From NCBI GenBank assembly GCA_903889905.1, contig CAISZI010000028.1:4156-68155 (forward strand): a stretch of 64,000 bases of DNA, in the 5' to 3' direction. The first letter of the stretch is position 1. Each line of letters begins with the position of its first letter. The position numbers and the translations under genes are program-made. Of the stretch, positions 12,601 through 63,132 are shown one piece after another. The notes under the pieces were generated by a model. The model saw nothing but the letters and a program-made list of their open reading frames with translations. It was not told where the DNA came from and did no database searches. This DNA comes from Candidatus Wirthbacteria bacterium. Lineage in GTDB: Bacteria; Patescibacteriota; CG2-30-54-11.

Positions 12601-15387
12601 CTCTCTCCCCAGCTACTGCAGACGCTGTTCAGTCACGCACGCGGTGTTCCCTTTTTGGGTGGCCTGCTCAAATCCGGTACCGGCAGACCCCTGGGTGAAG
12701 CACTGGTCGGCAGCTACTATCAGAGCAATCCCCGCGAGATCACAGCGCTGGCCGGTGACATCAATGCTTCCGACTCTGTCCGTTCCGACGCCGCCAAAAC
12801 TGTGCTCAAAGTCGGTGTCGAAGCTTTGGGACAGGCACTCATGCAAAATCCCGATGATCCACAGCTCCGCGCCGCGGCCAAAGACCTGGTGACGATCATG
12901 CCCGAACAAATTGCCTCACTCTTAAGTGGCAATGACGACAAACAGTCACTGCGGGAATCCTTTGTCAATCAAGGCTTGTATCGCCAAGCTCCCTCGACCA
13001 CTGCCCCGGTCATGAGTTTTGATACAGCTCAGCCGCTCGGCACCTTCTCGACTCAACCGCTGCCGGCCAACGGCAACGGCCAGATTGACCAGAGCACCGC
13101 GAATGACATGAGTGGCTTGTACCGTCCCATACCCCCGGCCCATGTCCCGGTCATGAATTTTGATGGGGCGCAGCCGCTCGGTCCAGCCTCGGCTCAACAA
13201 CTGCAAGCCAAAATCAGTGGCCAGATCGACCAGATCACAGCGGGTGACGTGAGTGGACTGCTGGATAAAATGAACGAAATACCTACGCTTTACCGGAATT
13301 CACTGGGCAACCTCGTTGATCAATACAATCAGCAACTGGGTCATTTCGGTAACCAGGGCACACTAAGCCAATCCGCCGCCCAAACCATTAATCAAAATCG
13401 CGACCGTATCGCCCAGCTCGGCTTTAATTTAAAACAAACCGCCAATCAGGACATGGCTGCCGCGGGTGAATTAACGCGCATGAGTGGCCCCGAACTGCAG
13501 CAAGCCAGCGCCGATCTGCTGTCGGTTGGACTCCCGGCGATGATCGCCTCCAACCCTCAAGCCGTGAACGCTACTCTGATGGACCGTACGCTCCAGGGCT
13601 TGTCCCAAAACCCCGAAGTTTTCAAACCACTTATCTACTCCATGCTGTCGCCGCAGTCCGATATCCCGCCCGCCGTGTATGCCAATGGCTTGCAGGAACT
13701 GTTGCAGACCCATCCCGAAATGGTCATGCCCGAACATGTGGGTCACGCCATCAGCAATCTCAGCACCAATCCCGAAGCCTATTCACCTGTGGTCGGCGCC
13801 ATGGCCGAAATGTTTAATCAAAACAAAGACAAGATTGGTCAGACTGGACAACTTTCCATTCCTGCTGCCGCCGAACTGGCAGTCCACGCCGACGAACTTG
13901 CCACCCACAACGCCCCCTTGATCCTGAACGCCTTGCCCAATCCGACGCCGGAACTCAGTGCTGCCATTGCCAGCAAAGCTGCCAGTCAAGGGATCATGGG
14001 ATTACCCGATGGATTGATCCATGACGGTCTGGATTTCACACTCCAGAACCAATCCCTGGAATTCACCCCCGAGCAGTTTGCCCTGGTGGAAAATCGCGCC
14101 AGAGAAAATCCGGCAGAATACATGCCGCTTTTAAATCAAGTTGTTGAACATTTCAATGACTCCAATCTGGATGGCGCTGACCTTAAGCTCAACATGCCTG
14201 CCATGATGACCGTTGCCAGCCAGGAAAATTCACTGCGCGATCTTGGCTTTGAAATCAGCAGCCAGATCAGCGGACAACTCAAAAACCTGGCCTCCTCCCA
14301 AAACCTCGACCTCGGCAGCCTCGACAACATTGAAAAAGCGATTCGTGAAATTCCCAAAAACATGTCCCTGCCCAACCCCGGCGAAAACACCACAGAGAAT
14401 GCGGCCAAAAACACCAAATACGACGAACTTCCGGGCCTGGTGCACAAAACCGCCGCCGACCAGGACGAACTGGCGCGCGACAAAGTGGATATTGCCTCCA
14501 GCCTGGGCAAAAAGAACAGCCATTCTGACAATCTGGGCACGCTCGAGGATTATGCCCTCAATGTCCAAAGTGCGCTGATTGCCGGCGAAATGAGTCCGGA
14601 TTCGGCTTCGCCTGTCGACAAAAATGCCGAAATCGACGCGGTCAGTTTGCACGACCTGGCCAAATCGCTTGACCCCGGTACCGCAAGCTCGCTAATTCCC
14701 GAAAGCACGCAGTTTGTCCTGCCAGAGACAACTACCGGTGGCACTTTTGAAAGCCCAGCCGAACTCAGCGGCCAACCCGATCTGATGGCTGCAGTATCCA
14801 ACAATGAAGCGAACAACAAATCCAATGACTGGCCCCAGAAACCTTTTGCCTCTGATGCCATCCGCCCGGATGCGCCACTTGCGGACGACAAGGCCTCGAT
14901 CCAAAGCGGCATGAACGATCTCAACAAATTCCTCAGCAGCAAACCCCAGGCTATGCCCATTCCGACGGGTAACGCGGCAGCGCCCGCTGCAGCCGCCACC
15001 GATATGATGATCGATTATCAAGCCATCAAGGATTCCACGCTACCCAATGTACCTTTTCCTGAAACGATCGTCTCTGCCATCAGCGTAACGCCGGAATTGG
15101 AAAAAATCCTCAACCATAACCGCCTTGATGCTACCATTCCACCCAACACGTCGATCAAAATTGCGGAACCGCTGCAGGTTAAATCAGAATTATCAGCTGG
15201 CTCTGTCCAAAACCCGGCCAAACCGCTCAACCCATCCATTTTGCCTAATCAGAACAAGCTCAGCGACAATCTGCAGGATTTTGCCGCCAATGTCCAAAAC
15301 GCTGTCGGCCCGTCACCGGATGAAATTTTCCTCAACCCTGTCCCGGATGCCATCGCCGCTTTATCGCTCAAAGACCAAAAGGATTAA
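9646..15387 (+). CDS. Giant membrane protein (1913 aa) with a signal peptide, a ~480-aa extracytoplasmic N-domain, a ~7-TM bundle and a ~1150-aa Q/N/P/A/L-rich low-complexity C-terminal tail. It is a VirB6/TrbL-like candidate (an extended VirB6, as seen in Rickettsiales).
   Basis: The signal peptide MIQLHQPKTWLIVLLLTLTCVGLVGQAPTAAA begins at the ATG at 9646, which overlaps the pilin stop. The ORF-track start at 9592 is a GTG inside the pilin gene and is unlikely. TM helices span aa ~520-790 and include the motifs MLIVRTAAMWLLIIGSPF and LIGIATFTLMLLSPSFLSFFSNIV. These are clearly conserved in the paralog at 48791-52507. The assignment to the VirB6 family rests on architecture plus adjacency to the pilin-like gene and has not been verified by HMM. 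Confidence 0.5.
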   Translation: MIQLHQPKTWLIVLLLTLTCVGLVGQAPTAAAEQLSSIPYWSDATKESALLTQANNQIYGNPQTDASTYIKGATALDNDASQLASTIENDVISVIKDTKLKQPAQVAAIKDIVYKIYRPANAFVNASPSNGADTKAYVAQFGIVNFLRMYLGQCTGSLGSDPYCSNQSWYSAPNGDNAYNYTGPNQNEVRTATAYYLQQAAVKQPFYDRLSINNDGTLTETTGIVTEINQFLKNLDDATLQSKMLTLKTSMLDPTDPTKTINVPEYSLASSQLYMIVSKNQSLITNKDYTFFWTSDYFPGAPAASLTTLTDLTADFQLVAYVRAKTIYEKNRSQKQAQYSLATQLTKEVSDVYGTLTASPYDMSTVVSTLSTKFATVKTLGSTCSAAEQGYIGCTNSNIEPMNMADNASQETVIQNAIEAATQAVENYTKTYQGSPNLGDPNTIADMGKARASILAARDSILRYLSEMTDTANQRINEATLNIDQLANIIGNQLSSLTSVNSLWTELRKALMNLITWLFSIFGKILNFGMTSINNEASLNAIFTLTVGLANMMFVLLVALAGLAIALEWNVQTYSIRNIIWRFIVSVIAANASFLISRIFVDFSLIFSNVFLSMASTLTSNTTELFIRMGTVNGTSTLGLSSAALSHLFGSLLTSNTAAVANNVFQNDISAVLVLVVIMLIVAAVDIMLIVRTAAMWLLIIGSPFILALNVLPNTRSILSKFAKIFAQLLVIAPIVAMIFLIGISLAQLSDDLLKILIGIATFTLMLLSPSFLSFFSNIVKINKRSDARTAIATAYNNNSAPTSPPGSSAKPNSPTGPAGTSIKNTFNTNIKNFINRPKNETMPAGLGELPPQSILTAVKSGVLNKLPPEELDKAFSKMSKAQREALLSTFNAKDRNSDPLWTEDQQELIGKQVSKSDINGAVRSSELISKASVAKDFNINKFVKTATPSTGGTEPLADEISNQLAQEQNDQLQNNLQHKLESNKLSPQLLQTLFSHARGVPFLGGLLKSGTGRPLGEALVGSYYQSNPREITALAGDINASDSVRSDAAKTVLKVGVEALGQALMQNPDDPQLRAAAKDLVTIMPEQIASLLSGNDDKQSLRESFVNQGLYRQAPSTTAPVMSFDTAQPLGTFSTQPLPANGNGQIDQSTANDMSGLYRPIPPAHVPVMNFDGAQPLGPASAQQLQAKISGQIDQITAGDVSGLLDKMNEIPTLYRNSLGNLVDQYNQQLGHFGNQGTLSQSAAQTINQNRDRIAQLGFNLKQTANQDMAAAGELTRMSGPELQQASADLLSVGLPAMIASNPQAVNATLMDRTLQGLSQNPEVFKPLIYSMLSPQSDIPPAVYANGLQELLQTHPEMVMPEHVGHAISNLSTNPEAYSPVVGAMAEMFNQNKDKIGQTGQLSIPAAAELAVHADELATHNAPLILNALPNPTPELSAAIASKAASQGIMGLPDGLIHDGLDFTLQNQSLEFTPEQFALVENRARENPAEYMPLLNQVVEHFNDSNLDGADLKLNMPAMMTVASQENSLRDLGFEISSQISGQLKNLASSQNLDLGSLDNIEKAIREIPKNMSLPNPGENTTENAAKNTKYDELPGLVHKTAADQDELARDKVDIASSLGKKNSHSDNLGTLEDYALNVQSALIAGEMSPDSASPVDKNAEIDAVSLHDLAKSLDPGTASSLIPESTQFVLPETTTGGTFESPAELSGQPDLMAAVSNNEANNKSNDWPQKPFASDAIRPDAPLADDKASIQSGMNDLNKFLSSKPQAMPIPTGNAAAPAAAATDMMIDYQAIKDSTLPNVPFPETIVSAISVTPELEKILNHNRLDATIPPNTSIKIAEPLQVKSELSAGSVQNPAKPLNPSILPNQNKLSDNLQDFAANVQNAVGPSPDEIFLNPVPDAIAALSLKDQKD
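13006..13262 (+). repeat. Intragenic tandem repeat with two ~141-bp units, encoding PVM(S/N)FD(T/G)AQPLG...GQIDQ...SGL twice
   Basis: ccggtcatgagttttgat... at 13006 is repeated as ccggtcatgaattttgat... at 13147. The encoded peptide PVMSFDTAQPLGTFSTQPLPANGNGQIDQSTANDMSGL aligns with PVMNFDGAQPLGPASAQQLQAKISGQIDQITAGDVSGL. Confidence 0.7.
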
Positions 15388-20200: not shown

Positions 20201-21349
<1,149 letters not shown>

Positions 21350-21640
21350 CTAAATCTCCTCATACAAATCCTTCCAATTCGTGTTTGTAGAAATAATCAT
21401 ATCAACTTTCTTTTCTCTTGAACCAGCCTTAATCTGCTTCTCTCTCATAATTGCCATTTCAACATCATCAAAAACCTCAAAATAAACCAAACGACTAACG
21501 TTATATCGGGAAGTAAAACTCGCCACGAGCTTTTCTCTGTGCTCGTAGACTCGACGCTTCAAATCATTGGTAACGCCGGTATTAATAACTGTACGAGCGG
21601 GGTTGGTCAAAAGATAAACATAATATTGACGGTCTTCCAT
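21350..21640 (-). CDS. GIY-YIG nuclease-superfamily small protein (YhbQ/UPF0213-like)
   Basis: MEDRQYYVYLLTNPARTVINTGVTNDLKRRVYEHREK carries the GIY...YIG-type motif (YVYLL...GVTNDLKRRVYEH). Confidence 0.7.
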   Translation of the reverse strand: MEDRQYYVYLLTNPARTVINTGVTNDLKRRVYEHREKLVASFTSRYNVSRLVYFEVFDDVEMAIMREKQIKAGSREKKVDMIISTNTNWKDLYEEI

Positions 21641-21663
21641 TATTGGACTCCAAAATCAAGAAA

Positions 21664-21702
21664 GAGAGATTGCCGCGCCCCGCTGACGGGACTCGCAATG
21701 AC
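21664..21702 (-). repeat. Dispersed short repeat, copy C (reverse orientation)
   Basis: gagagattgccgcgccccgctgacgggactcgcaatgac; the reverse complement is GTCATTGCGAG-TCCCGTCAGCGGGGC-GCGGCAATCTCTC, with an internal hairpin CCCG-tcag-CGGG. Confidence 0.8.
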
Positions 21703-21714
21703 AGACACGAATGC

Positions 21715-23022
21715 TCAAACAAAATCGATCATCTCCTTTTCCACTCCCCCATACAACTCATCAATCTGCTTCTGCACCTCAATCGTCCGCTCCAGTGCCG
21801 TCACCACGCGGCAATAATGCCTGATATCATTGGCACTCAGGCTGCGGCCTTTACGGTCTTTGAGCCATTTGTCGCAGACCTGGTAGCCACCGATCTGGTA
21901 CTGCCAAACCTCGGCCGGTACGCAGTCAAAGTGCTGCGTGGCATTGATCCAAACCTTGCCAGCTTCAAACCGTGGTTTCTCTACTTTCCCGTCGCCGGTT
22001 CCCTCGAACTTGGCAATCGGCACCTCCAACACTGGCGACTTGAGCAAGTGCAAATCCACCAGTTGCTGCCCCAACCCGCCCAGTTTCACAAACAGTTCAT
22101 AATCCCTGGTAAACGGCACCCGCGGGAAATCCCGTTTCAGGAAGTCGGCGTACTTCTCGCGGTAGACATTGGAATACAATACGGCGTAGATGTAGTTAAA
22201 AATTGCTTCTGGCGCCAAAGGTTCCGTCCCTCCGTCATTGCGAGGAGTCTCCGACGTGGCAATCTCTCCGAGCATCTTCTGCAAGGCAACTATCAGCCGT
22301 GGATTAATGTTTGCCGTTTTTTCCGTAATTTCAACATCAAACATTGTCTTTTTCTTGGCGCTTGGATCGGGATACAAATAAAGTGGAAACATGCATGACT
22401 GCGTGGTTCGTTCACCACATTTTGTTTCCATAATTGCATCTGTGCAGAAAAAATGATCCATTTGTTGAGATTTATTACTTCTGGCAGTAATCAACGCAAC
22501 ATTAGCTTGCTGCATATGTGCCATTACTCGTCTAACAGTTCTCCAAACAACTGCATCGTGATAAAAAATATATCTATGATCAAAAGGTCGATACGATATT
22601 GACACAATGTTTTCATCGAGATTGATATTATCTAACTTCGCCAAAATCCGGTGTGCAACATCTATATCCCATCCAGTTTTTATATTAACTTGAAAGAAAG
22701 TATATAAATCATTACCAGAATAAATGCTAACTGAAAAACGTCGCATCCGGTTCACTAACTCCGTCTTGCTCATATCAATAACAAAATCATCATGTGCCGT
22801 CGTTATTCCCACCCCATTCACCGGAAACACATCCGTCACCTTCCAGAACCGCTCATAGTGTGCCAGAAGTTCCGTATTCTGCGGCACCAGCAAATACGAC
22901 TCACTCTGCGGATGAAGTTCCTGCCAGTCGGTGGTGCTCACATCGTGATGGTCGAGGTAGTCGTATTTCTGCTCCCGCAGTCCCCACACATCAGAGTAGA
23001 AGACTTTGGCCTGGTTTGACAT
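21715..23022 (-). CDS. C-terminal target-recognition-domain-like portion of an MmeI-like Type IIG RM enzyme, as a separate ORF. It contains an in-frame copy of the dispersed repeat.
   Basis: The N-terminus MSNQAKVFYSDVWGLREQKYDYLDHHDVSTTDWQELHPQSESYLLVPQ resembles the region following the methyltransferase domain in Type IIG/ISP/PglX-like enzymes. The ORF is separated from the upstream methyltransferase ORF by ~300 nt containing in-frame stops (a TAA at 23107-23109). Repeat copy B at 22234-22269 encodes EIATSETPRND within the ORF. Confidence 0.55.
   Translation of the reverse strand: MSNQAKVFYSDVWGLREQKYDYLDHHDVSTTDWQELHPQSESYLLVPQNTELLAHYERFWKVTDVFPVNGVGITTAHDDFVIDMSKTELVNRMRRFSVSIYSGNDLYTFFQVNIKTGWDIDVAHRILAKLDNINLDENIVSISYRPFDHRYIFYHDAVVWRTVRRVMAHMQQANVALITARSNKSQQMDHFFCTDAIMETKCGERTTQSCMFPLYLYPDPSAKKKTMFDVEITEKTANINPRLIVALQKMLGEIATSETPRNDGGTEPLAPEAIFNYIYAVLYSNVYREKYADFLKRDFPRVPFTRDYELFVKLGGLGQQLVDLHLLKSPVLEVPIAKFEGTGDGKVEKPRFEAGKVWINATQHFDCVPAEVWQYQIGGYQVCDKWLKDRKGRSLSANDIRHYCRVVTALERTIEVQKQIDELYGGVEKEMIDFV
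22234..22269 (+). repeat. Dispersed short repeat, copy B, located inside a CDS and in frame
   Basis: GTCATTGCGAG-GAGTCTCCGAC-GTGGCAATCTCTC, nearly identical to copy A. On the minus strand it translates as G-EIATSETPRND-G inside ORF 21715-23022 with no stop codon. Confidence 0.8.
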
Positions 23023-23320
23023 GGTTTGATTGCCTTGGTAAAATTGAAGCAGAAGTCCTCTGTAATGATATTCGGCGTCGAGCCGTGCTTCGCGCAAGCG
23101 AACTAGTTACAGAGGGCTTACTGTATTCAGATCAAATTTATGCTTGGAATTGTAATAATTTTTCCCATCGGCATAGTTAGATTTAGGCGCGTTTGACACT
23201 CTAAAGATTACCTTGATAAGATACTATCACAAAGATCCATTTTCCGAACTGTCACCGTAAGGTGGCGTGCCTGGGAGACACCAGGAGTAGGAAATGGATC
23301 GTTTTTTATACAGATGACAA

Positions 23321-25165
23321 TCATTTCTTCTCCCCCATCTTCACAAACAACGCGATCGCCACGCCGGCCTGGATGTCGAAGACGTTTTCGTCTTTGGAGC
23401 CGTCCGGGCATTTTTCTTTCTTGAGACTGTTGCCGTGCAGGTTGAGAATGTAGAGCTCGTCAAAACTCGTCATCAAGGACTGGCGCATACCGCGGAAGGT
23501 AGGGTTGTCTAGGTAGCTGTGGTTGGTAATAAAGCCAAGGATGCCTTCCCCGGCTTGGTCAATCTTCCACTGCGCGAAGCGGATGAATTTGACGTAGTCG
23601 TCCTGCAGCCACTTGGGATTGCGTTCGTTGAGTGAATGCCCATCAACCTGAAAATATTCCCGGATTTCCTTGGCAATCCACTCGCCATTGTTGTCGGAAT
23701 GACCGGAATACGGCGGATTGCCCATCACGACCATGATCGGGATTTCGCGCTTCACTTTGCCGGCAAGCTCGGACTCATGCGACAGTGACGTGAGGCCAGG
23801 TAAGGCAGATTGCTCGAGATCTTTCCATTCCAGCGTATTGGTGAGGTAAAGCTGGAACCGTTCATCATCCTTGAGCCGGTAGCCAAGTTCATCAAAGGTA
23901 ATCCCCGCCTTGAGATGCCCCACCGCATACGGCGCCATCATCAGTTCAAAGGCGAAGAAGTGCTTCAGGATGTGGTCATGAATCAAACTCGAAACCCCAC
24001 CGCTTCCATACTTGTTCTTGTATTCCTCTACCGCAAGGCGGATGGCGGCAACCGGAAAAGTAATGGTTCCGGCTGCTGGGTCTAGCACCGTCACAGTGTC
24101 GGAAGCAAACCCGTCAGCGCGGCCAAACCGGGTTTTGAGCAGGTGATGGATGGAACGCGTAATGTATGAAACAACCGGTTCCGGCGTGTAATAAACGCCA
24201 CGTTTTTCCCGTTCTTTGGGGTCGTATTCTGACAAAAACGTTTCGTAGAAATGAATAACCGGGTCGCGGCCTTTGCCTTCCTGATAGAAATTGTTGATGA
24301 TTTTATTGACGTCGCAATTGGCCAGTACTTCGGCGATATCATCGATGATCCATTCCATGTTGGGCGGCAAATCACCCAGTGAAATAAACTTGAACACGTC
24401 GCGCAAAATGCCGATGGTGTGCGGAATAAACTGGTAAGCCAGTGGACGGTTGAATTCCTTGTTTGCCCGGGTGCGCGCGGCAAACAATCCGTAAGTGATC
24501 GTCTGGGCAAACAAATTGGCAAAATCCTGTACCGTGAGTGTTGACAACAAGTGTTGCTTGAAGGCTTCCAAAAATGCTTCCAGAGTCTGCGTGCCCTCAA
24601 TTTTCTCTTCTTTCATTTCCTCGGCAATCACATTGTCGCGCAAAAACCGCGTGCGTTTGGCCAATTCGGTGGCGAGCTGTTTGGCGGTGAAGGTGCGGGG
24701 AATCGAAAAGGAAAAAAACTGGTCCAGTAGCTGACCAAATTCAGTTTCATTTTCCACCGGCGGCACAGCTTTGAGCTGTTGCAGGACAAACGGCCGGCCG
24801 ACCTCGGTTTTGGCAATCAACACGCCATTGCGGTACAGACGGAATTCCAGAAAATTGGTCAAGATCAAATTGGGAAAAGTCTGCCGATAACGCTTGAGTT
24901 GCTCGGATTCGGCAATCTCATCCAAATTCCCAACCGTCGGCGCCTTGGCTTCGATGTAACCGACGATTTTACTTTTGCCGTCCCAAATACGGAAATCGGG
25001 ATTGCCACCTTCGGTCTTGCGTGGCAACGTGATGACATCAAACTGCTTGTTCTGGTTTTGAATCCATAGCTTGAGCAGTTGTTTGAGGTCAGAATAAAAA
25101 CTCTCCTCCCGTGCGTCACCGTGCAGGCTGGTGGTATGAAGGGATTTGAGATAGTCAAAAAGCAT
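23321..25165 (-). CDS. MmeI-like Type IIG restriction-modification enzyme, N-terminal part: PD-ExK nuclease domain plus gamma-class N6-adenine methyltransferase (NPPY)
   Basis: The N-terminal PD-(D/E)xK-like motif is GNPDFRIWDG...IVGYIEAKAP. Methyltransferase motif I is VLDPAAGTITF and motif IV is MVVMGNPPYSGHS. The downstream region LGFITNHSYLDNPTFRGMRQSL...NVFDIQAGVAIALF is typical of Type IIG/ISP gamma-methyltransferases. Confidence 0.7.
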   Translation of the reverse strand: MLFDYLKSLHTTSLHGDAREESFYSDLKQLLKLWIQNQNKQFDVITLPRKTEGGNPDFRIWDGKSKIVGYIEAKAPTVGNLDEIAESEQLKRYRQTFPNLILTNFLEFRLYRNGVLIAKTEVGRPFVLQQLKAVPPVENETEFGQLLDQFFSFSIPRTFTAKQLATELAKRTRFLRDNVIAEEMKEEKIEGTQTLEAFLEAFKQHLLSTLTVQDFANLFAQTITYGLFAARTRANKEFNRPLAYQFIPHTIGILRDVFKFISLGDLPPNMEWIIDDIAEVLANCDVNKIINNFYQEGKGRDPVIHFYETFLSEYDPKEREKRGVYYTPEPVVSYITRSIHHLLKTRFGRADGFASDTVTVLDPAAGTITFPVAAIRLAVEEYKNKYGSGGVSSLIHDHILKHFFAFELMMAPYAVGHLKAGITFDELGYRLKDDERFQLYLTNTLEWKDLEQSALPGLTSLSHESELAGKVKREIPIMVVMGNPPYSGHSDNNGEWIAKEIREYFQVDGHSLNERNPKWLQDDYVKFIRFAQWKIDQAGEGILGFITNHSYLDNPTFRGMRQSLMTSFDELYILNLHGNSLKKEKCPDGSKDENVFDIQAGVAIALFVKMGEKK

Positions 25166-25184
25166 TTAAGACCTTATGAAGAAA

Positions 25185-25221
25185 GAGAGATTGCCGCGGT
25201 CGAGGACTCACTCGCAATGAC
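25185..25221 (-). repeat. Dispersed short repeat, copy D (reverse orientation)
   Basis: gagagattgccgcggtcgaggactcactcgcaatgac; the reverse complement is GTCATTGCGAG-TGAGTCCTCGAC-CGCGGCAATCTCTC. It lies between the RM gene start and the ruvB stop. Confidence 0.8.
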
Positions 25222-25241
25222 AGCCACAACCAATTTCCACT

Positions 25242-29342: not shown

Positions 29343-29473
29343 AGGATTAACCTGCTAAGATTTGAACGGCGACAGTATAACACAAATTTCATTTTTCGAA
29401 ATTCCCTTGTTCTATCATTGCAAGCCTTGCGCGGCCCAAGTCCGGCAGAACTGGGCAATCTAGCTTCTGAAAC

Positions 29474-29508
29474 GAAAGATTGCCACGTCGAAGACTCCTC
29501 GCAATGAC
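29474..29508 (-). repeat. Dispersed short repeat, copy E (reverse orientation)
   Basis: gaaagattgccacgtcgaagactcctcgcaatgac; the reverse complement is GTCATTGCGAG-GAGTCTTCGAC-GTGGCAATCTTTC. It lies between the tpiA stop and the secG start. Confidence 0.8.
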
Positions 29509-29514
29509 AGAAAA

Positions 29515-41383: not shown

Positions 41384-42655
41384 TTATTTGACGATGTCTT
41401 TCATTGCCTGATCCATGACCTGATCCTGCTTGGCGTCATAAGCGGCCTGCGTCAATTTGATGACAGTGTCCGGTTTGATGCCAATATCCTGAATCCAGGT
41501 ACCGCTTGGGGTGTACCACTTATCGGTCACAACACGCACGGAGCCGGGCGCGGTGGAACCAGGGACATTAATCGAGAAAATTTCCTGAATCACGCCCTTG
41601 CCAAAGGTTTGTTCGCCATAAACTTTGGCGCGCTTGTGATCCTGCAGTGCGCCAGTTACCATTTCGGCTGCACTTGCAGTGCCACCATTGGTGAGCACGA
41701 GCATGGGAACGTCCAGCAGTTTGCCTTTGCCATCCACGGTCGAGACCTGTTTGTTGTCAGCGCCAAAATCCTGGGTGATCGAAATGCCGCTACGCACCAG
41801 GTCATTGATCACATGCTCGGCCGCGTCCACATACCCGCCCGGATTGTTGCGCAGGTCGAGGATCACGCCCTTGGGTTTCTTGCTGACCAAATCTTTGACG
41901 ACTGCGTCCCATTCCGCAATGGTATCGGCGGTGAAACTATGAATCGACAAGTCAAAAATTCCATTACCTTTGTCAGCCAGCTCCACGCTTTTGACATTGA
42001 TCACGGCGCGCGTCAGAGTTTTGTCAAACGTATCGAGCGTACCATCGTCCTTGATACGCTGGATCGACAGCGTCACTTTGGACCCGACATCGCCACGGAT
42101 TTTGGCAACCGCGTCAGTCACGGTGAGTTCCTGGACTGAAGCTCCGTCCACTTTCTTGATCACATCACCGGCCAGAATGCCAGCCAGGTCACCGGGAGTA
42201 CCATTGAGCGGAGCCACGACCATCAGTTCGCCATTGCGTTTTTCCAGTTCCAGTCCAACCCCGCCAAAATTCCCCTGCAAATCCTGCGTTGCCAGCGTAT
42301 TGATCGCCGGTGGCAAAAAGGTTGAGAACTGGTCATTAAAACCGTACTGCAGCATGCCATTGATGGCACCAAACATCAGCTTCTGCGGATCCCCCGGACG
42401 ATCGACGTGTTTGGCTTTGGCCAGATTGTAAACTTCCCAAAACAATCCCAGATATTTCTCCGCAGCTGGATCCGGGGTGGAATCCGTTGCTGTGATGGCC
42501 GTGCTGAGGGTATCCTTTAAACCTAATTTCGCCGTCTGCCCGGCAGCGAGACCAAACCACTCGGGGTCATAATGCCCAGCCAAAACGCCACTTAGAAACA
42601 AGCTGCAAGCAAGTCCTGCTGCCACAAATCCCAGTGCTAATTTACGTACGGACAT
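41384..42655 (-). CDS. S41-family C-terminal processing peptidase (Ctp/tail-specific protease-like) with an N-terminal TM anchor and PDZ domain, copy 1
   Basis: S41 catalytic region motifs ILDLRNNPGGYVDAAEHV and VLTNGGTASAAEMVTGALQD. The N-terminal TM helix is LALGFVAAGLACSLFLSGVLAG. Confidence 0.8.
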   Translation of the reverse strand: MSVRKLALGFVAAGLACSLFLSGVLAGHYDPEWFGLAAGQTAKLGLKDTLSTAITATDSTPDPAAEKYLGLFWEVYNLAKAKHVDRPGDPQKLMFGAINGMLQYGFNDQFSTFLPPAINTLATQDLQGNFGGVGLELEKRNGELMVVAPLNGTPGDLAGILAGDVIKKVDGASVQELTVTDAVAKIRGDVGSKVTLSIQRIKDDGTLDTFDKTLTRAVINVKSVELADKGNGIFDLSIHSFTADTIAEWDAVVKDLVSKKPKGVILDLRNNPGGYVDAAEHVINDLVRSGISITQDFGADNKQVSTVDGKGKLLDVPMLVLTNGGTASAAEMVTGALQDHKRAKVYGEQTFGKGVIQEIFSINVPGSTAPGSVRVVTDKWYTPSGTWIQDIGIKPDTVIKLTQAAYDAKQDQVMDQAMKDIVK

Positions 42656-42965
42656 ACCTCGTCTCCTGCAAAATCTAACTTGTGAAAAAGTGAGCCAATC
42701 CTAGCCCATCGCTGCCCAAGCTGCAAGTCGGAAACCGCTAAAGCCCTCCATCACATTTCCCCCAACGCCCAACCCAACGGTCGTCGGGGAAGACTTTTTC
42801 TCCTGTCGCCACTCCTGAACCTGACACTCCAAGTGGCACCGCCAACCTCAGGTTGAAAATACATTAACATCAAAACACCCCGTGCAAGCGCTTCCACCCG
42901 TGAAATCAAAAACGGGCACCTGATTGGCGTCAGGAGAAAAAATCTTCCCCGACGAACAAGCTGCA

Positions 42966-44258
42966 CTATCTTCCAATCGCCTTGAGCAGTTCCAGCGCCT
43001 TCAAAACAACCGGATCCTGTGCCAAAGGCAGAGGCTGACTGGGCCGATCCAGCAAAAAGTCAGGTTGCAGGCCAAGTCCCGTAAGATCGCGCCCTTTGGG
43101 CGTAAACCATTTGGAGGTCACAAGCCGCACCGAAGCGTCATTGCTTTCCCCTGCGATCTGTACGTTAAAAATCTGTTGAATCACGCCTTTGCCAAATGTA
43201 CGTTCGCCCACCAGCGGCCCGCGGTCATAATCCTGCAGGGCCGCAGCCACCATTTCAGCCGCGCTCGCCGTACCGCGGTTCACCAACACAACGAGCGGCA
43301 AACCAAACCATTTGCCACTGCCAGACACTTCAAATTTCTTTTCCGTGCCGTCGTTGAACTTCTGGTCCAGCACCAGGCCGCTTTTAACAAATTCACTGAC
43401 AATATGCGGCGTATCGGTTACATAGCCACCGGCATTGTCACGCAAGTCCAGGATGATAGCTTTGGGCTTGGTGAGCTGAATTTCATTGACGATTTTGTCC
43501 CACTGATCCGGTGTATCCTGCGCCATGGTCGTAACCTGCACATAAACCACTTTGTTGGCGAGCCCTTGCCAGTAAACACTCGGGATATTTATCTGCTGCC
43601 GGGTAAGCGTGGCATCGATCACGACCGCACCCTGTTCACGGCCGTGCTGGTATTTGAGTTTGACCGTGGACCCGACCGCGCCACGCAGGGCACTGATTTC
43701 CTCAACGGATGACTTGCCATCCGTGGGCTGCTCCCCGATCTGCAAAATCACATCCCCGGCCAATAGGCCAGCTTTGTCCGCGGGTGAGCCGGGTGTCACG
43801 GAAGCAATCGTCAAGTAACCATTCAGTGTTTCCAATTCCACCCCAATCCCGCCAAAACTGCCATCCAGATTGGTCTGAGCGACATGATTGACAACCGGTG
43901 GCAAAAAAGATGAAAAGGGATCATTAAAACCAAACTGCAGCATGCCGTTGATCGCACCGTAAAGCAGCTCGTTAAACACGGGATGTGTTGTCAGCGAATT
44001 CATTTGCACTATTTTCCAGACATTGGCAAAGAGCGTGAAATTAATTTTATCAGTGGCCGCGAGACTCGACTGATTGGCCAGGTTCGCATTGTTCTGACTG
44101 GTCGCCGCTACATCAACCAGTACCCGTGGTGATTGCAAACCAAACAACGCCGGAAACTGATAACCGACCTCAATTCCAACGCCAAGCACAATCACGAAAG
44201 CCCCGCCCCAAAGCAATGCGAACAAGGGCAACCGCAAGCGTTTAAAAAGCTTTGTCAT
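42966..44258 (-). CDS. S41-family C-terminal processing peptidase, copy 2
   Basis: Motifs IILDLRDNAGGYVTDTPHIV and VLVNRGTASAAEMVAAALQD. It is paralogous to copies 1 and 3. Confidence 0.8.
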   Translation of the reverse strand: MTKLFKRLRLPLFALLWGGAFVIVLGVGIEVGYQFPALFGLQSPRVLVDVAATSQNNANLANQSSLAATDKINFTLFANVWKIVQMNSLTTHPVFNELLYGAINGMLQFGFNDPFSSFLPPVVNHVAQTNLDGSFGGIGVELETLNGYLTIASVTPGSPADKAGLLAGDVILQIGEQPTDGKSSVEEISALRGAVGSTVKLKYQHGREQGAVVIDATLTRQQINIPSVYWQGLANKVVYVQVTTMAQDTPDQWDKIVNEIQLTKPKAIILDLRDNAGGYVTDTPHIVSEFVKSGLVLDQKFNDGTEKKFEVSGSGKWFGLPLVVLVNRGTASAAEMVAAALQDYDRGPLVGERTFGKGVIQQIFNVQIAGESNDASVRLVTSKWFTPKGRDLTGLGLQPDFLLDRPSQPLPLAQDPVVLKALELLKAIGR

Positions 44259-45559
44259 GGCGTACCCCCGCTTGCCTGGTCGATTTTGGCACGCAACAGT
44301 TCTTTGGCCTTGAACATGACGGTATCCTTGTTTGCTGCCCAGTCAGCCGCGGTTGGCGTCACCACTGAATCCGGTGTCAGGCCCACCCCTTCTACGGATT
44401 TACCATTGGGTGTGTACCACTTCAGATGTTCGAGGCTGAGTACGGCTGGCGCAATTTCGCCCGGAATGGCAAACGTATAAAGCTGCTGGATCACACCTTT
44501 ACCAAAGGTATTGGTTCCAACCAGCGTTGCTCTGGCGTGATCCTGCAAAGCCGCTGCGACCATTTCGGCGGCGCTGGCGGTACCACGATTGACGAGTACG
44601 ACCACGGGGACGTCGGTTAATTTGCCATGCCTGGTTACCGACCAGTTTTTGCGGTCACCATTGCGGTCGGCCTGGGTAAACACCACCCCGGCCGGCACAA
44701 AGTCGCTGACCATGGGCACGACGGCTTGTGTTAGACCGCCGCCATTGCCACGCAAATCCAGAATAATACCTTTGAGGTCCTTGTTGGCAATGACGTTGAC
44801 AGTATTGCCCCATTGTTTCAGTGTCTGATCAGAAAAACGGTCCACGTTAATGTCATAAACGCCTTTTTCCAATTCGGTCCAATTCAACGTCTCGGTTTTG
44901 ACCGGCGCGCGTACCAGGTCGTAATCTTTTTCTACCCACTGGTTATTCTGCATGCGCAGAGTGACAATGTGGACCTTGCTGCTGACCTTGCCCAGCAGTT
45001 CCAGTTGTGCATCCATCAGTGACATCCCTTGTACCGATTTGCCACTTAAACTGACAATCAAATCCCCATCCTGGATGCCAGCGTTACCAGCGGGACCATC
45101 CGGAACGACATTGACGATCACCAGATCGCTGCTGCTCAGATCCATTTCAATGCCAATGTCTCCCACCGTGGTCGCCAGCTGGTCAAGTTGGTAAAAATCT
45201 TTTTCCGGCGGCAGAAAATACGAATATTTGTCTTTGAGGCCAAAGCGCAGCATCCCGTTGATCGCACCATAAATCATCTCCGTGGTGTTGGCCGGCGCGT
45301 CAAAGTGCTTGCTTTGGGCCAGTTCCCACACTTTCCAAAACAGGTCGAACGTCTGCGTTGGCTGCCTGTTTTTGGCCAGATAAATCAAATTGTCACTGCT
45401 GCCTCGCCCCAGACTCTGAAATTCCAGATTCCAATTCTTCAACCCGATTGTTTCCGGCCGCGCAAAACCCACATAAACACCCAGCCCAAAGGCGAGGCCC
45501 AGGCTGAGCACAACTGCAATCACAATCAACCGTTTGGTTTTGGGATGGGTCATGAGCAC
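44255..45559 (-). CDS. S41-family C-terminal processing peptidase, copy 3
   Basis: Motifs IILDLRGNGGGLTQAVVPMV and VLVNRGTASAAEMVAAALQD. Its stop overlaps the start of copy 2 by 4 nt (44255-44258). Confidence 0.8.
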   Translation of the reverse strand: MLMTHPKTKRLIVIAVVLSLGLAFGLGVYVGFARPETIGLKNWNLEFQSLGRGSSDNLIYLAKNRQPTQTFDLFWKVWELAQSKHFDAPANTTEMIYGAINGMLRFGLKDKYSYFLPPEKDFYQLDQLATTVGDIGIEMDLSSSDLVIVNVVPDGPAGNAGIQDGDLIVSLSGKSVQGMSLMDAQLELLGKVSSKVHIVTLRMQNNQWVEKDYDLVRAPVKTETLNWTELEKGVYDINVDRFSDQTLKQWGNTVNVIANKDLKGIILDLRGNGGGLTQAVVPMVSDFVPAGVVFTQADRNGDRKNWSVTRHGKLTDVPVVVLVNRGTASAAEMVAAALQDHARATLVGTNTFGKGVIQQLYTFAIPGEIAPAVLSLEHLKWYTPNGKSVEGVGLTPDSVVTPTAADWAANKDTVMFKAKELLRAKIDQASGGTP

Positions 45560-51700: not shown

Positions 51701-52507
51701 GACACGCCAGCTAATTTTCAGCCTGATTTGCATGAGGGCACCCGCGCGCTGGCCAAAAAAACGCTGCAGCATGAAGGTAACCAGGAAAACCTGCCTACCA
51801 CCATGAAGGCCAATGCCGCCCGGAACCTGGGATTGCCTGTAACGGACAGTGCTAACAATACCAATACGCCGGCAGCTGTGCAGGCACTCAAGCAATCGCC
51901 CATGTCCCAACCCAACCCACTTGATACCCAACAATCCGCTGATTTACTCCAATCTGCCAATGCGATTTCCACTGATTTGGCCGCCAAAATAAAGGCTAAT
52001 GCCGCCCGGAACCAGGGATTGCCTGCGACGGACAACACCGAAATTGCCAAAACGCCGGATGCATTGCAGACACTCAAGAATACGCCCATGTCCCAACTCA
52101 AACCACTTGATACCAAACAATCCGCTGATTTACTCCAATACGCGAATGCCAATCCTAATGCGATTTCCCCTGACATGGCTGCAAAAATGGTGATGACTCT
52201 ACCGATCGAAGACCTGGGACGCATACCCCAAACTGTCTCCGCCATGGCCGAGAATCAACTGCAGCACAAAGATTCTTCGCAGCTCACGCATGCAGACATC
52301 GAACTCGCTGCCCGCGTAATTGCCGCCACGCCCAAACCCACGCTCTCCAGCCTCCAGTCAAACACGTTCAAAGTTGGTGCGCAGCTTTCTGGCCAGGATT
52401 TAAGCCAGGCCACCCGCGACCAGGTGCAGATTACCCTCTCCGCAGAACTTGAAAAAATGATCGCCCCCCAGAAGTCGCCATTGAACGATCCCGAACTCAA
52501 CACTTAA
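48791..52507 (+). CDS. Paralog of the VirB6/TrbL-like giant membrane protein (1238 aa), with a signal peptide, an IPT/TIG-like Ig-fold N-domain, a ~7-TM bundle and a ~780-aa low-complexity C-terminal tail. It has a TTG start.
   Basis: The signal peptide is LILSLLAALLVAVAVLGFAPASSHA. The N-domain motifs PTIEPNEGYAGIPVSINASGLG...VTYPV...FTVPSGLPNNAYDVFVVSNG fit an IPT/TIG fold. The TM motifs MMILRTIAIWLMVAIAPF and FIGIATLTLLLFIPSFIGSIF match MLIVRTAAMWLLIIGSPF and LIGIATFTLMLLSPSFLSFF in the protein at 9646-15387. Confidence 0.5.
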   Translation: MPQAKPKPKLILSLLAALLVAVAVLGFAPASSHAANSPTIEPNEGYAGIPVSINASGLGTIVDKYDDTKMYVEFVDAMGTKTKATVTYPVAQNWNDTNVNFTVPSGLPNNAYDVFVVSNGNRIGPLKFHIIAYATPANVNGTPDYTSDYIIANTQSINVSDAIRQIAQGFLLPSKDTIIELGSYLQDALVLKLDLGSSDTDGSAYKKLEPIWSISHNLVNSLFLLAIVFIGIMITLRMQNRINRYWLRNIIPRGILALVLINLSLLLSQALMDFFVIFTHVIRDSFSTMPSGQQFATALLGDLRLNIFVLAMLAFYLLTIALMSCALVMMILRTIAIWLMVAIAPFVFMGVLFPFTSHAPIVWLKRFMQMLLVGPIATFLLFIGYQLSISVKADFENADLIRAFIGIATLTLLLFIPSFIGSIFDYVQKVLPTNKNTTNNTSTTTKTSNQNNQDNSTSIKNKIGLQDGSLADKIQTIKIPLTDQFQKRFQSLISGKPNISTPADSGTAAVNSAASDARQTATNASTASSSEATTTERKQGPSRDDSAGKPQIDLDRAKEQARAKNNVLFDQATPNKLFDTAPPQLVINWLNDKGKIKIVSAGLVASKGNLENNKANAIIDSQPGKQLLSDMYGNGSKDEKNASSNLISNIFLASPDRIKTIVDATGNNAPPIKQAAQTVLEAGIVRLGQRLQENPGDEKLQKAAERVVMSAPHLLSSTLANVPDQGPVLINAGIMELAATLGATLAKLTDRISPRVMFANPTPDSKEYFDVGQLASQIVVYPALQLSRLGTSHAGAQFVASAALSNTPQSTEVKQKLVGELEQSPSNISLQAIAAEIFKHTPPAAVAALPVPIATAAREYLKSPAMQQKPDPELIQQYLTATSGPDLLQHESLSGNLLKQLNLPDLLKHIGIENHDKNTLELPSKIVMASPVVELVEKQKDLFNESQKTLPYLEPQNPALAAATAVKLVADTPANFQPDLHEGTRALAKKTLQHEGNQENLPTTMKANAARNLGLPVTDSANNTNTPAAVQALKQSPMSQPNPLDTQQSADLLQSANAISTDLAAKIKANAARNQGLPATDNTEIAKTPDALQTLKNTPMSQLKPLDTKQSADLLQYANANPNAISPDMAAKMVMTLPIEDLGRIPQTVSAMAENQLQHKDSSQLTHADIELAARVIAATPKPTLSSLQSNTFKVGAQLSGQDLSQATRDQVQITLSAELEKMIAPQKSPLNDPELNT
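51806..52190 (+). repeat. Intragenic tandem repeat with two ~186-bp units, in the tail of the second VirB6-like protein
   Basis: aaggccaatgccgcccggaacctgggattgcct... at 51806 is repeated at 51992 as aaggctaatgccgcccggaaccagggattgcct.... The encoded unit is KANAARN(L/Q)GLP(V/A)TD...(L/K)PLDT(Q/K)QSADLLQ(S/Y)AN. Confidence 0.75.
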
Positions 52508-62978: not shown

Positions 62979-63058
62979 CTTTGCCTCTCGATCTATCATT
63001 GCGAATCCTGTTTCGGGATGTGGCAATCTAGTGTATTGGATCCTGTGACCGATAAAGA

Positions 63059-63089
63059 TGAAAGATTGCCGCGCATGGCTCGCAATGAC
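63059..63089 (-). repeat. Dispersed short repeat, copy F (reverse orientation, shortest copy)
   Basis: gaaagattgccgcgcatggctcgcaatgac; the reverse complement is GTCATTGCGAG-CCATGC-GCGGCAATCTTTC. It lies between the purN start and the purM stop. Confidence 0.75.
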
Positions 63090-63132
63090 TGCTGAAAACT
63101 GAATAAAGATATAATGTCTTTGTTCAAAAAAA

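Follow-up and report, generated by a model that had tools for sequence, protein, structure and literature searches.

The Ssn nucleases and the Ssn-related motifs (SRM) that go with them, which in Neisseria are the NTS/dRS3 repeats, were described by Chenal et al. (Nat Commun 2025, PMC11893778). The N. meningitidis enzyme, SsnA, consists of a single GIY-YIG domain (cd10448). It binds the NTS hairpin only as single-stranded DNA (ssDNA) and on one strand only, shows no binding to the RNA form, and cleaves at a site a few nucleotides 5' of the hairpin, leaving double-stranded DNA and RNA uncut (PMC11893778). Mutagenesis pointed to the three bases 5' of the palindrome as important for cutting and to the C just 3' of it as the most important for binding; the Y17A mutant kept ssDNA binding and lost cutting (PMC11893778). 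Ssn homologs occur across phyla and are flanked by SRM, an SRM-ssn-SRM layout that was called insertion sequence (IS)-like, and NTS are rarely intragenic (2%); in-frame peptide insertions are not discussed (PMC11893778). Here we analyzed a 64-kb stretch of DNA (the window) from a Candidatus Wirthbacteria bacterium (contig CAISZI010000028.1), in which one copy of a short palindromic repeat, copy B, lies in frame within a restriction enzyme gene. The original prediction had compared this copy with the Rickettsia palindromic elements (RPE). The window repeat can be assigned to the published Ssn/SRM system, as an ATTGC...GCAAT sequence class. Very probably, in our view, copy B arose when an SRM hairpin entered the recognition-domain gene, where it was kept as 39 nucleotides (nt), open in frame, in a loop. 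The copy and its host gene are as follows:

22231-22269, top strand plus: copy B, SRM-type hairpin repeat; conserved core 22233-22266 (C-GTCATTGC...GCAAT-CTC); the minus strand read in frame gives GEIATSETPRNDG.
21715-23022, minus strand: host gene, encoding a Type ISP/IIG C-terminal target-recognition domain protein of 435 residues from the ATG at 23022; the TTG-started open reading frame (ORF) reaches 23097.

The host ORF matches PF18135 (Type_ISP_C) with an E value of 1.7e-83 over profile positions 1-339 of 342, in one continuous stretch, and its relatives in the PDB are DrdV, LlaGI and LlaBIII. As had been predicted, this ORF reads through copy B as ...QKMLGEIATSETPRNDGGTEPLAPE..., with neither a stop nor a frameshift. 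No alternative gene model drops the region, and the Pfam match runs unbroken across it. A search of 5.8 billion proteins with the host protein returned 1584 homologs, and we aligned the window protein with P0001 and 26 homologs of 46-57% identity (28 sequences). P0001, a fragment of 100% identity that stems from the same population, is the only other sequence in this alignment that carries the insert; the next closest homolog is 57% identical. All 26 homologs have a 14-column gap where the window protein has IATSETPRNDGG..., which argues against an ancestral segment. The part encoded by the repeat is exactly 13 residues (39 nt), and when it is deleted in silico the joined ...QKML-GTEPLAPE... 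can be aligned to the family's ...YKKxPTPE..., leaving one residue over. From the same alignment we built an AlphaFold model (mean predicted local distance difference test [pLDDT] score 83, predicted template modeling [pTM] score 0.82), which places residues 254-266, all with pLDDT below 50, in a coil between helices 241-252 and 271-282. The expectation that the repeat would create a novel peptide insertion is therefore borne out by a 13-residue segment absent from the 26 homologs, and sequence and model together indicate that this insertion has been added to a predicted loop of the recognition-domain protein.

Copy B is one member of a family. With all copies oriented alike, the consensus in the window is CTGTCATTGCGAG, followed by 8-30 variable nt that form a hairpin, followed by CGYGGCAATCTCT. 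When copy B was used as a pattern with up to three mismatches, three window copies were found (21313-21348 plus, 22232-22267 plus, and 29475-29510 minus), compared with none in 100 shuffles. The looser box pattern ATTGCGAG..GCAAT found six copies against 0.12 expected, and addition of the CATTGC..GGCAAT pattern brought the family to eight copies in the 64 kb (0.12-1.2 expected for the box patterns). TCATTGC and GCAATC are present in all eight; the G before TCATTGC, which gives GTC, has become A in both plus-strand copies of the inverted pairs. Copy B is the only intragenic copy among the eight, and the coordinates first proposed for it (22234-22269) were right to within 3 nt. Copies A and B are 919 nt apart and 95% identical across 39 nt. 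The window holds solo copies at 22236 and 25219, two short-spacer inverted pairs (spanning 91-99 nt), and one pair around a small nuclease gene, ssn:

21350-21640, minus strand: ssn homolog, a single-domain GIY-YIG nuclease gene (96 residues, PF01541 only) about 600 nt from copy B; presumed partner of the repeat.
21312-21350, plus strand: copy A, directly after the ssn stop codon and antisense to ssn; the true tgt start (21289) follows 23 nt downstream.
21665-21704, minus strand: copy upstream of ssn, in sense orientation, about 28 nt before the ssn start codon; with copy A it makes the inverted pair of an SRM-ssn-SRM unit.
25186-25223, minus strand: solo copy, with the ruvB stop codon on one side and the methyltransferase ORF on the other.
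29412-29514: inverted pair (29416-29459 plus and 29479-29506 minus, 19-nt spacer) directly 3' of the tpiA stop codon.
62993-63091: inverted pair (62997-63027 plus and 63065-63087 minus, 37-nt spacer) between purN-like and purM-like ORFs.

The window Ssn is 43% identical, without gaps over 92 residues, to the 94-residue SsnA homolog of N. gonorrhoeae (pairwise E value 6e-28). The N. gonorrhoeae gene lies between GTCATTCCCGC..GCGGGAATC repeats, the classical NTS/dRS3. A tblastn search with the window protein against N. gonorrhoeae gave an E value of 4e-18, and the published homology criterion is E < 1e-10. The closest PDB entry is 1zg2 (UPF0213), and no homologs of this protein were found in phage records. 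Many database Ssn homologs carry extensions of 25-75 residues that are translated hairpins (VIAS..KQS, LAMT, SRND). We also collected copies chosen only for ATTGC...GCAAT with an inner GA (n = 207), so that their flanks were unselected. These flanks read Y-G-T-C before the stem and C-T/C-C after it, and hold no information beyond; the 5' G, T and C are kept in 204, 206 and 204 of the copies, respectively, and the 3' C in 205. Because the bases published as critical are the very ones conserved in the class to which the window repeat belongs, we identify the window element as an SRM and its neighbor as an ssn homolog.

The association between hairpin and gene is strong when it is approached from the gene. 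In 80 metagenomic loci that encode relatives of the window Ssn (53-71% identity; 254 kb in total), a hairpin lies within 150 nt upstream of the gene in 58 of 78 loci, 53 times in sense orientation, and within 150 nt downstream in 62 of 74, 58 times antisense. Where both flanks were available, 51 of 72 loci have a hairpin at each side of the gene; the rest of the 254 kb holds only 49. The sense copy ends 0-30 nt ahead of the start codon in 33 loci, the antisense copy begins 0-9 nt past the stop codon in 35, and the whole hairpin-gene-hairpin unit is 340-440 nt long. The window ssn has this layout, with the sense copy on one side and antisense copy A on the other. A pattern scan for the motif, with one genome per species and at least 119 loci of 8 kb, placed it, among the matches listed, in Chloroflexi, Firmicutes, Planctomycetes, Nitrospirota, Alpha-, Gamma- and Deltaproteobacteria, Bacteroidota, Rickettsiales and many lineages of the candidate phyla radiation (CPR). 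A GIY-YIG gene lies beside the hairpins found in this way in only 3 of 119 loci among the matches listed, even with an iterated profile. The association is thus visible only in the reciprocal test, as is also the case for repetitive extragenic palindromic (REP) elements and their REP-associated tyrosine transposases (RAYT).

Comparison across the family also shows how the hairpin is built. Inside the base stem is a variable stem-loop closed by G-C, and the variable tips average 4.3 Watson-Crick pairs compared with 2.0 in shuffles. A tandem G.A/A.G mismatch occurs in 99 of 267 unique tips, and GCGN(1-2)AGC, known as a "mini-hairpin DNA" motif (PMC13037366), in 17-18% of top-strand tips, compared with 0 of 166 and 7 of 243 on the bottom strand. 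These two features appear to mark one DNA strand as the functional one. The base stem co-varies between lineages: the repeats that flank a 57%-identical homolog on a Planktothrix plasmid read GTCATTCTGAG...AGAATCTC and GTCATCCTGAA...AGGATCTC, and the hairpin arrays that surround the ssn homolog on plasmid p1 of Planktothrix agardhii have base stems that differ by compensatory changes (ATTCT/AGAAT and ATCCT/AGGAT). A possible origin of the palindromic tips as P nucleotides was dropped, as the loops are of GNA type, odd in length and not perfect palindromes. The folding of single copies gave a mixed picture. Only two of nine folds (the eight copies, with copy B on both strands) clearly beat shuffles, and copy B is not one of the two; the copy at 21665-21704 folds as DNA at -9 kcal/mol (z-score -2.7). 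The hairpin nature of copy B is therefore taken from the family-wide comparison and not from copy B alone. A full-text literature search with the repeat sequence returned only PCR primers.

Taken together, these data suggest the following course of events. The SRM is an oriented DNA hairpin repeat, with a 5' box YGTCATTGCGA, a variable stem-loop and a 3' box CGNRGCAATCTC, and its top strand, as ssDNA, would be what the small GIY-YIG nuclease Ssn binds. The family would have multiplied in the Wirthbacteria-like genome to its eight copies in the 64 kb, mostly between genes and often as inverted pairs, and one copy would have landed in the recognition-domain gene of the type IIG/ISP restriction enzyme, giving the 13-residue insertion. 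Copy B would have survived there because its length is a multiple of three, it is free of stops in the frame used, and it falls in a loop between two helices; the enzyme presumably tolerates the insert. As one-third of lengths keep the frame and five-sixths of the conserved-box frames are open, survivorship would be enough and no special in-frame mechanism is needed. GIY-YIG enzymes hydrolyze DNA and do not transfer strands. We infer that Ssn, or host repair provoked by Ssn on ssDNA, spreads the hairpin copies; the spread is correlated with ssn being present, and host repair following the action of Ssn on ssDNA is probably needed for it. That Ssn would recognize the ATTGC-class hairpins is an extrapolation to a new sequence class. 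Binding and cutting of the top strand only, as ssDNA, are predicted for the window Ssn, and the strand-asymmetric G.A tandems and GCGNAGC mini-hairpins are consistent with this.

Several observations weigh against this explanation. We know of no demonstrated mechanism that copies such hairpins to new sites. Run as a regular expression, the published degenerate SRM search sequence, HGTCWYN(0-2)YYVSBRHN(0-5)WNVSBRGN(0-2)RNCYNB, has no match in the 64-kb window and recovers none of the eight copies, whereas the canonical NTS does match. By standard energy rules copy B is a weak hairpin (-2.5 kcal/mol as DNA in a nearest-neighbor fold, z-score +0.6), and such parameters under-rate GNA mini-hairpins (PMC13037366). 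At the position of the "YIG" tyrosine the window Ssn has Asn (codon 20, TVINTGVT), where 79 of 80 relatives have Tyr; the catalytic Y6 and E64 of the N. meningitidis protein align with window Y9 and E67, and Y17 aligns with N20. The window Ssn may therefore be catalytically inactive, and either binding-only or decaying. No close relative with an empty site was present in the databases searched, so that the insertion is deduced from distant homologs (the next at 57%), and its exact ends and any target duplication are unreadable. Finally, about 300 nt interrupt the restriction gene, which may itself be decaying; in that case a "tolerated insertion" says little.

The last point leads to the strongest of the alternatives, which we consider unlikely, at roughly one chance in five in our estimate: the restriction gene would be a decaying pseudogene, and the in-frame state of copy B an accident of recent insertion into dead DNA instead of a tolerated peptide. 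The upstream half of the same enzyme is a separate ORF:

23321-25165, minus strand: upstream half of the same restriction-modification enzyme, with N6_Mtase/Eco57I domains, about 300 nt from the recognition-domain ORF and in a different frame.

In the fused homolog P0006 the methyltransferase and recognition halves are contiguous. In the window the methyltransferase half ends ...FVKMGEKK* and is followed by the insert of about 300 nt (gap 23023-23320), which holds an unrelated RNA motif. Decay would also fit the loss of the catalytic tyrosine from the neighboring ssn and the acquired, dispensable look of the whole insert between ruvB and tgt, and about one-quarter to one-third of random insertions of the element would be in frame and free of stops. 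The recognition-domain ORF, however, is intact over its 435 residues with a full-length Pfam match (1-339/342), and it keeps all 33 columns that are invariant across the 28-sequence alignment. Moreover, methyltransferase and recognition halves with something between them recur in two homologous loci on long contigs, L208 and L210, where an extra ORF (284 and 222 residues, respectively) occupies the same junction; a split therefore need not mean inactivation. The RNA motif is a match to Rfam DUF3800-IX at 23234-23304 on the plus strand, opposite the restriction gene (61.3 bits compared with a gathering threshold of 36.8). It sits inside the splitting insert, there is no DUF3800 gene nearby, and the RNA was not found at the equivalent junction of L208 or L210; we looked for terminal repeats bounding the insert of about 300 nt and found none. 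A homologous restriction enzyme carries an in-frame element of another kind: in the contig of P0028 (L201, 25-309), a different GIY-YIG mini-element of 285 nt, stop-free and with terminal inverted repeats CCTGCCTGCGCCGCG / CGCGGCAGGCAGG, lies between ..KKEKCPD and GSKDENVF and gives a three-part fusion protein.

A selected role for copy B, which we rate as rather improbable and below the pseudogene reading, would make it either an Ssn site that limits ssDNA recombination across the restriction-modification island or a loop that alters DNA recognition. The first version draws on the hairpins that bracket the island (21317 plus and 25219 minus, with further copies within) and on N. meningitidis, in which NTS in transforming DNA lowers its integration in an SsnA-dependent way, a logic of "NTS-gene-NTS" (PMC11893778); the second draws on the location of the insert in the DNA-recognition domain. 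Nothing in the window organism points to natural transformability, though, and the neighboring Ssn may have lost its catalytic activity. Disorder is predicted for the insert, and only one population carries it, so that no argument from conservation can be made.

It is very improbable that the hairpin acts as RNA (an mRNA stabilizer, an attenuator or a small RNA) and that its position in the ORF reflects such a function. The hairpin can fold as RNA, and REP elements of Escherichia coli do act on mRNA 3' ends. Yet no RNA family matched the window repeats in Rfam, at gathering thresholds or at E values up to 10, and copies occur in both orientations relative to transcription. G.T pairs (15) are in no excess over A.C mismatches (10) in the tips; as G.U would be enriched over A.C in a selected RNA stem, this argues against selection on RNA. 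The RNA form is also not bound by SsnA (PMC11893778). That the segment is ancestral coding sequence merely resembling the repeat has only its open reading frame in favor of it and deserves almost no credence, since it is absent from all 26 aligned homologs, is nearly identical to non-coding copy A and has the sharp conserved borders of the family.

The SRM insertion that we favor fits the surroundings of the host gene. The interval between ruvB and tgt (21290-25241, about 3.9 kb) holds the ssn unit and the two-part restriction-modification gene; inverted hairpins mark its limits at 21317 and 25219, as in a composite element. In a relative (L204, 3845-6131), ruvB is directly followed by tgt, 127 nt apart and with no hairpin between them, and no repeat copies were found in 11 kb of syntenic sequence. 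Because of these two differences, both the repeat family and the ruvB-tgt island appear to be lineage-specific acquisitions. The original prediction had also placed copy A in a possible N-terminal extension of tgt. Copy A is indeed crossed by an ORF that starts at a TTG (20201-21343), and nevertheless it lies upstream of tgt. Ten TGT homologs (53-69% identity) start at, or within one or two residues of, the window MSFEIL (ATG 21289), and none of them has the extension, which puts copy A in the leader, about 23 nt upstream of the real start. The public gene call for tgt (P0121) starts at an ATG inside copy A (..LAMTEKKK..), 10 codons upstream of the start that the homologs support. The closest named TGT is from Candidatus Wirthbacteria (69-70% identity).

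Small GIY-YIG genes were also seen in other settings. On plasmid p1 of Planktothrix agardhii (L206, 1170-2070), an ssn homolog (57% identity) lies between an MmeI-type restriction enzyme gene and the DISARM gene drmA, another case of ssn adjoining defense genes. In Candidatus Wirthbacteria CG2_30_54_11 (L202, 4330-4800), a small GIY-YIG gene of another subfamily, without ATTGC hairpins, lies between two copies of tRNA-Cys, one of which has an altered 3' half; this looks like insertion of the gene into a tRNA gene with partial duplication. The window also holds unrelated repeats, namely a 141-nt tandem duplication, a 177-nt near-tandem pair and three paralogous segments about 1.3-1.6 kb apart (12973-13254, 51798-52160 and 41577-45279).

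Copy B is not the only hairpin of its class that is read as protein. In other genomes, 16 of 151 hairpins among the matches listed lie at least 60 codons deep in long ORFs, and the deep in-frame hosts with a Pfam match on both sides of the hairpin include GuaA, AroA, TilS, HypF and a P22-type portal protein. The GMP synthase (GuaA) has about 22 extra residues compared with PDB entry 7sbc, beginning VIARP; the 5-enolpyruvylshikimate-3-phosphate (EPSP) synthase (AroA) reads its hairpin as QIATGEALAMT; TilS has two in-frame copies. In-frame copies of the same class therefore recur in other phyla.

These cases bear on the proposed likeness to RPE. The pentamer ATGAC is characteristic of the palindromes of RPE-4, -6 and -7 and of Wolbachia elements, and RPE-7 is listed in the isoleucyl-tRNA synthetase, IleS (Matsutani et al., PMC3767692). 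ATGAC is the reverse complement of GTCAT in the 5' box of SRM, which is near-invariant in the family, and the minus strand of copy B, ...CTCGCAATGACGG, contains the motif (CGCAATGACGG). In a Rickettsia endosymbiont of Polydrusus tereticollis (L072, 1642-1769), the IleS ORF has an in-frame insertion of 53 residues compared with solved IleS structures, which consists of an inverted pair of NTS-type GTCATTCCCGCGAAGGCGGGAATC hairpins read as ...VCHSREGGNPE...LDSRLRGNDT.... Elsewhere in this 8-kb locus are three further pairs or singles of this kind, together with one copy of the ATTGC class. A scan of NCBIfam with the peptides from the hairpins of the Rickettsia locus and from copy B gave no match, the presence of RPE models in that collection being unconfirmed, and a literature search found no paper that joins Ssn and RPE terms. 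On the comparison of motif and insertion, a link between SRM and RPE-7-like elements is probable, not proven, and the RPE resemblance may reflect real kinship; RPE-1, -2 and -3, which have no ATGAC signature, are probably unrelated. The likeness first drawn to RPE therefore holds for the in-frame behavior and for ATGAC; it does not hold for size (about 35-39 nt) or for frequency within genes (one copy of eight), and the element belongs with Ssn/SRM. A wider version, in which in-frame insertion by Ssn-related hairpins is pan-bacterial, RPE-4, -6 and -7 and the Wolbachia elements are doublets of such hairpins, and Ssn is their missing partner, seems to us evenly poised between right and wrong.

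The in-frame repeat is now placed within a recently characterized system, and the ATTGC hairpin class, missed by the published search pattern, is spread over many phyla and CPR lineages. If the pan-bacterial version is true, the SRM family has been substantially under-counted, as published searches miss this class. Hairpins of this kind repeatedly make small in-frame insertions in conserved enzymes, and this leads to variation in protein length and to spurious annotated starts and extensions. There is also a testable link between Ssn hairpins and a subset of RPE, whose origin and mobilizing enzyme have been open since 2000. The practical effect on the window is modest: the tgt start moves to 21289, and the recognition-domain protein has a loop insert of 13 residues.

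How does the window repeat compare with known systems? Like REP elements, their REPIN doublets and RAYT, the window repeats are imperfect palindromes of small size that lie chiefly outside genes, frequently as inverted pairs; inverted copies also surround a small nuclease gene, recognition would be of hairpins in ssDNA, and there is no target-site duplication. Unlike in that system, the partner is a GIY-YIG hydrolase and not a Y1/HUH tyrosine transposase, so that covalent strand-transfer chemistry would be unavailable, and the GTAG/CGTC tag is absent, the 5' box of the window being GTCATTGC. Classical DDE-type IS and miniature inverted-repeat transposable elements (MITE) differ in that no target-site duplication is seen at window-type hairpins or units: at 371 solo hairpins and 31 hairpin-gene-hairpin units, the borders carried direct repeats no more often than shuffled pairings did. 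With RPE, copy B shares being a palindromic repeat in frame in an unrelated gene, at an exposed loop, and with RPE-4, -6 and -7 an ATGAC within the palindrome; it differs in being 39 nt (element about 35-39 nt) instead of 100-150 bp, in being a single hairpin and not a doublet, and in having a host outside the Rickettsiales. The closest system is Ssn/SRM. As there, the window has a single-domain GIY-YIG protein of about 95 residues that shares 43% identity with the Neisseria homolog, and the gene for this window protein has inverted hairpin repeats of 20-50 nt on either side; the repeat is multicopy, mostly intergenic and of a family widespread across phyla, and it is oriented, a GTC preceding the palindrome and a C following it. 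The window differs from canonical SRM in its base stem, ATTGC/GCAAT with a GA..GNR internal loop compared with ATTCCCGC/GCGGGAAT, from N. meningitidis SsnA in the Asn at the catalytic Tyr17, and from the published cases in its Wirthbacteria-like host; it also has a copy in frame within a gene, a kind of insertion not discussed for NTS, which are rarely intragenic. Copy B thus represents a new sequence class and a new host lineage of the kind of system described in 2025.

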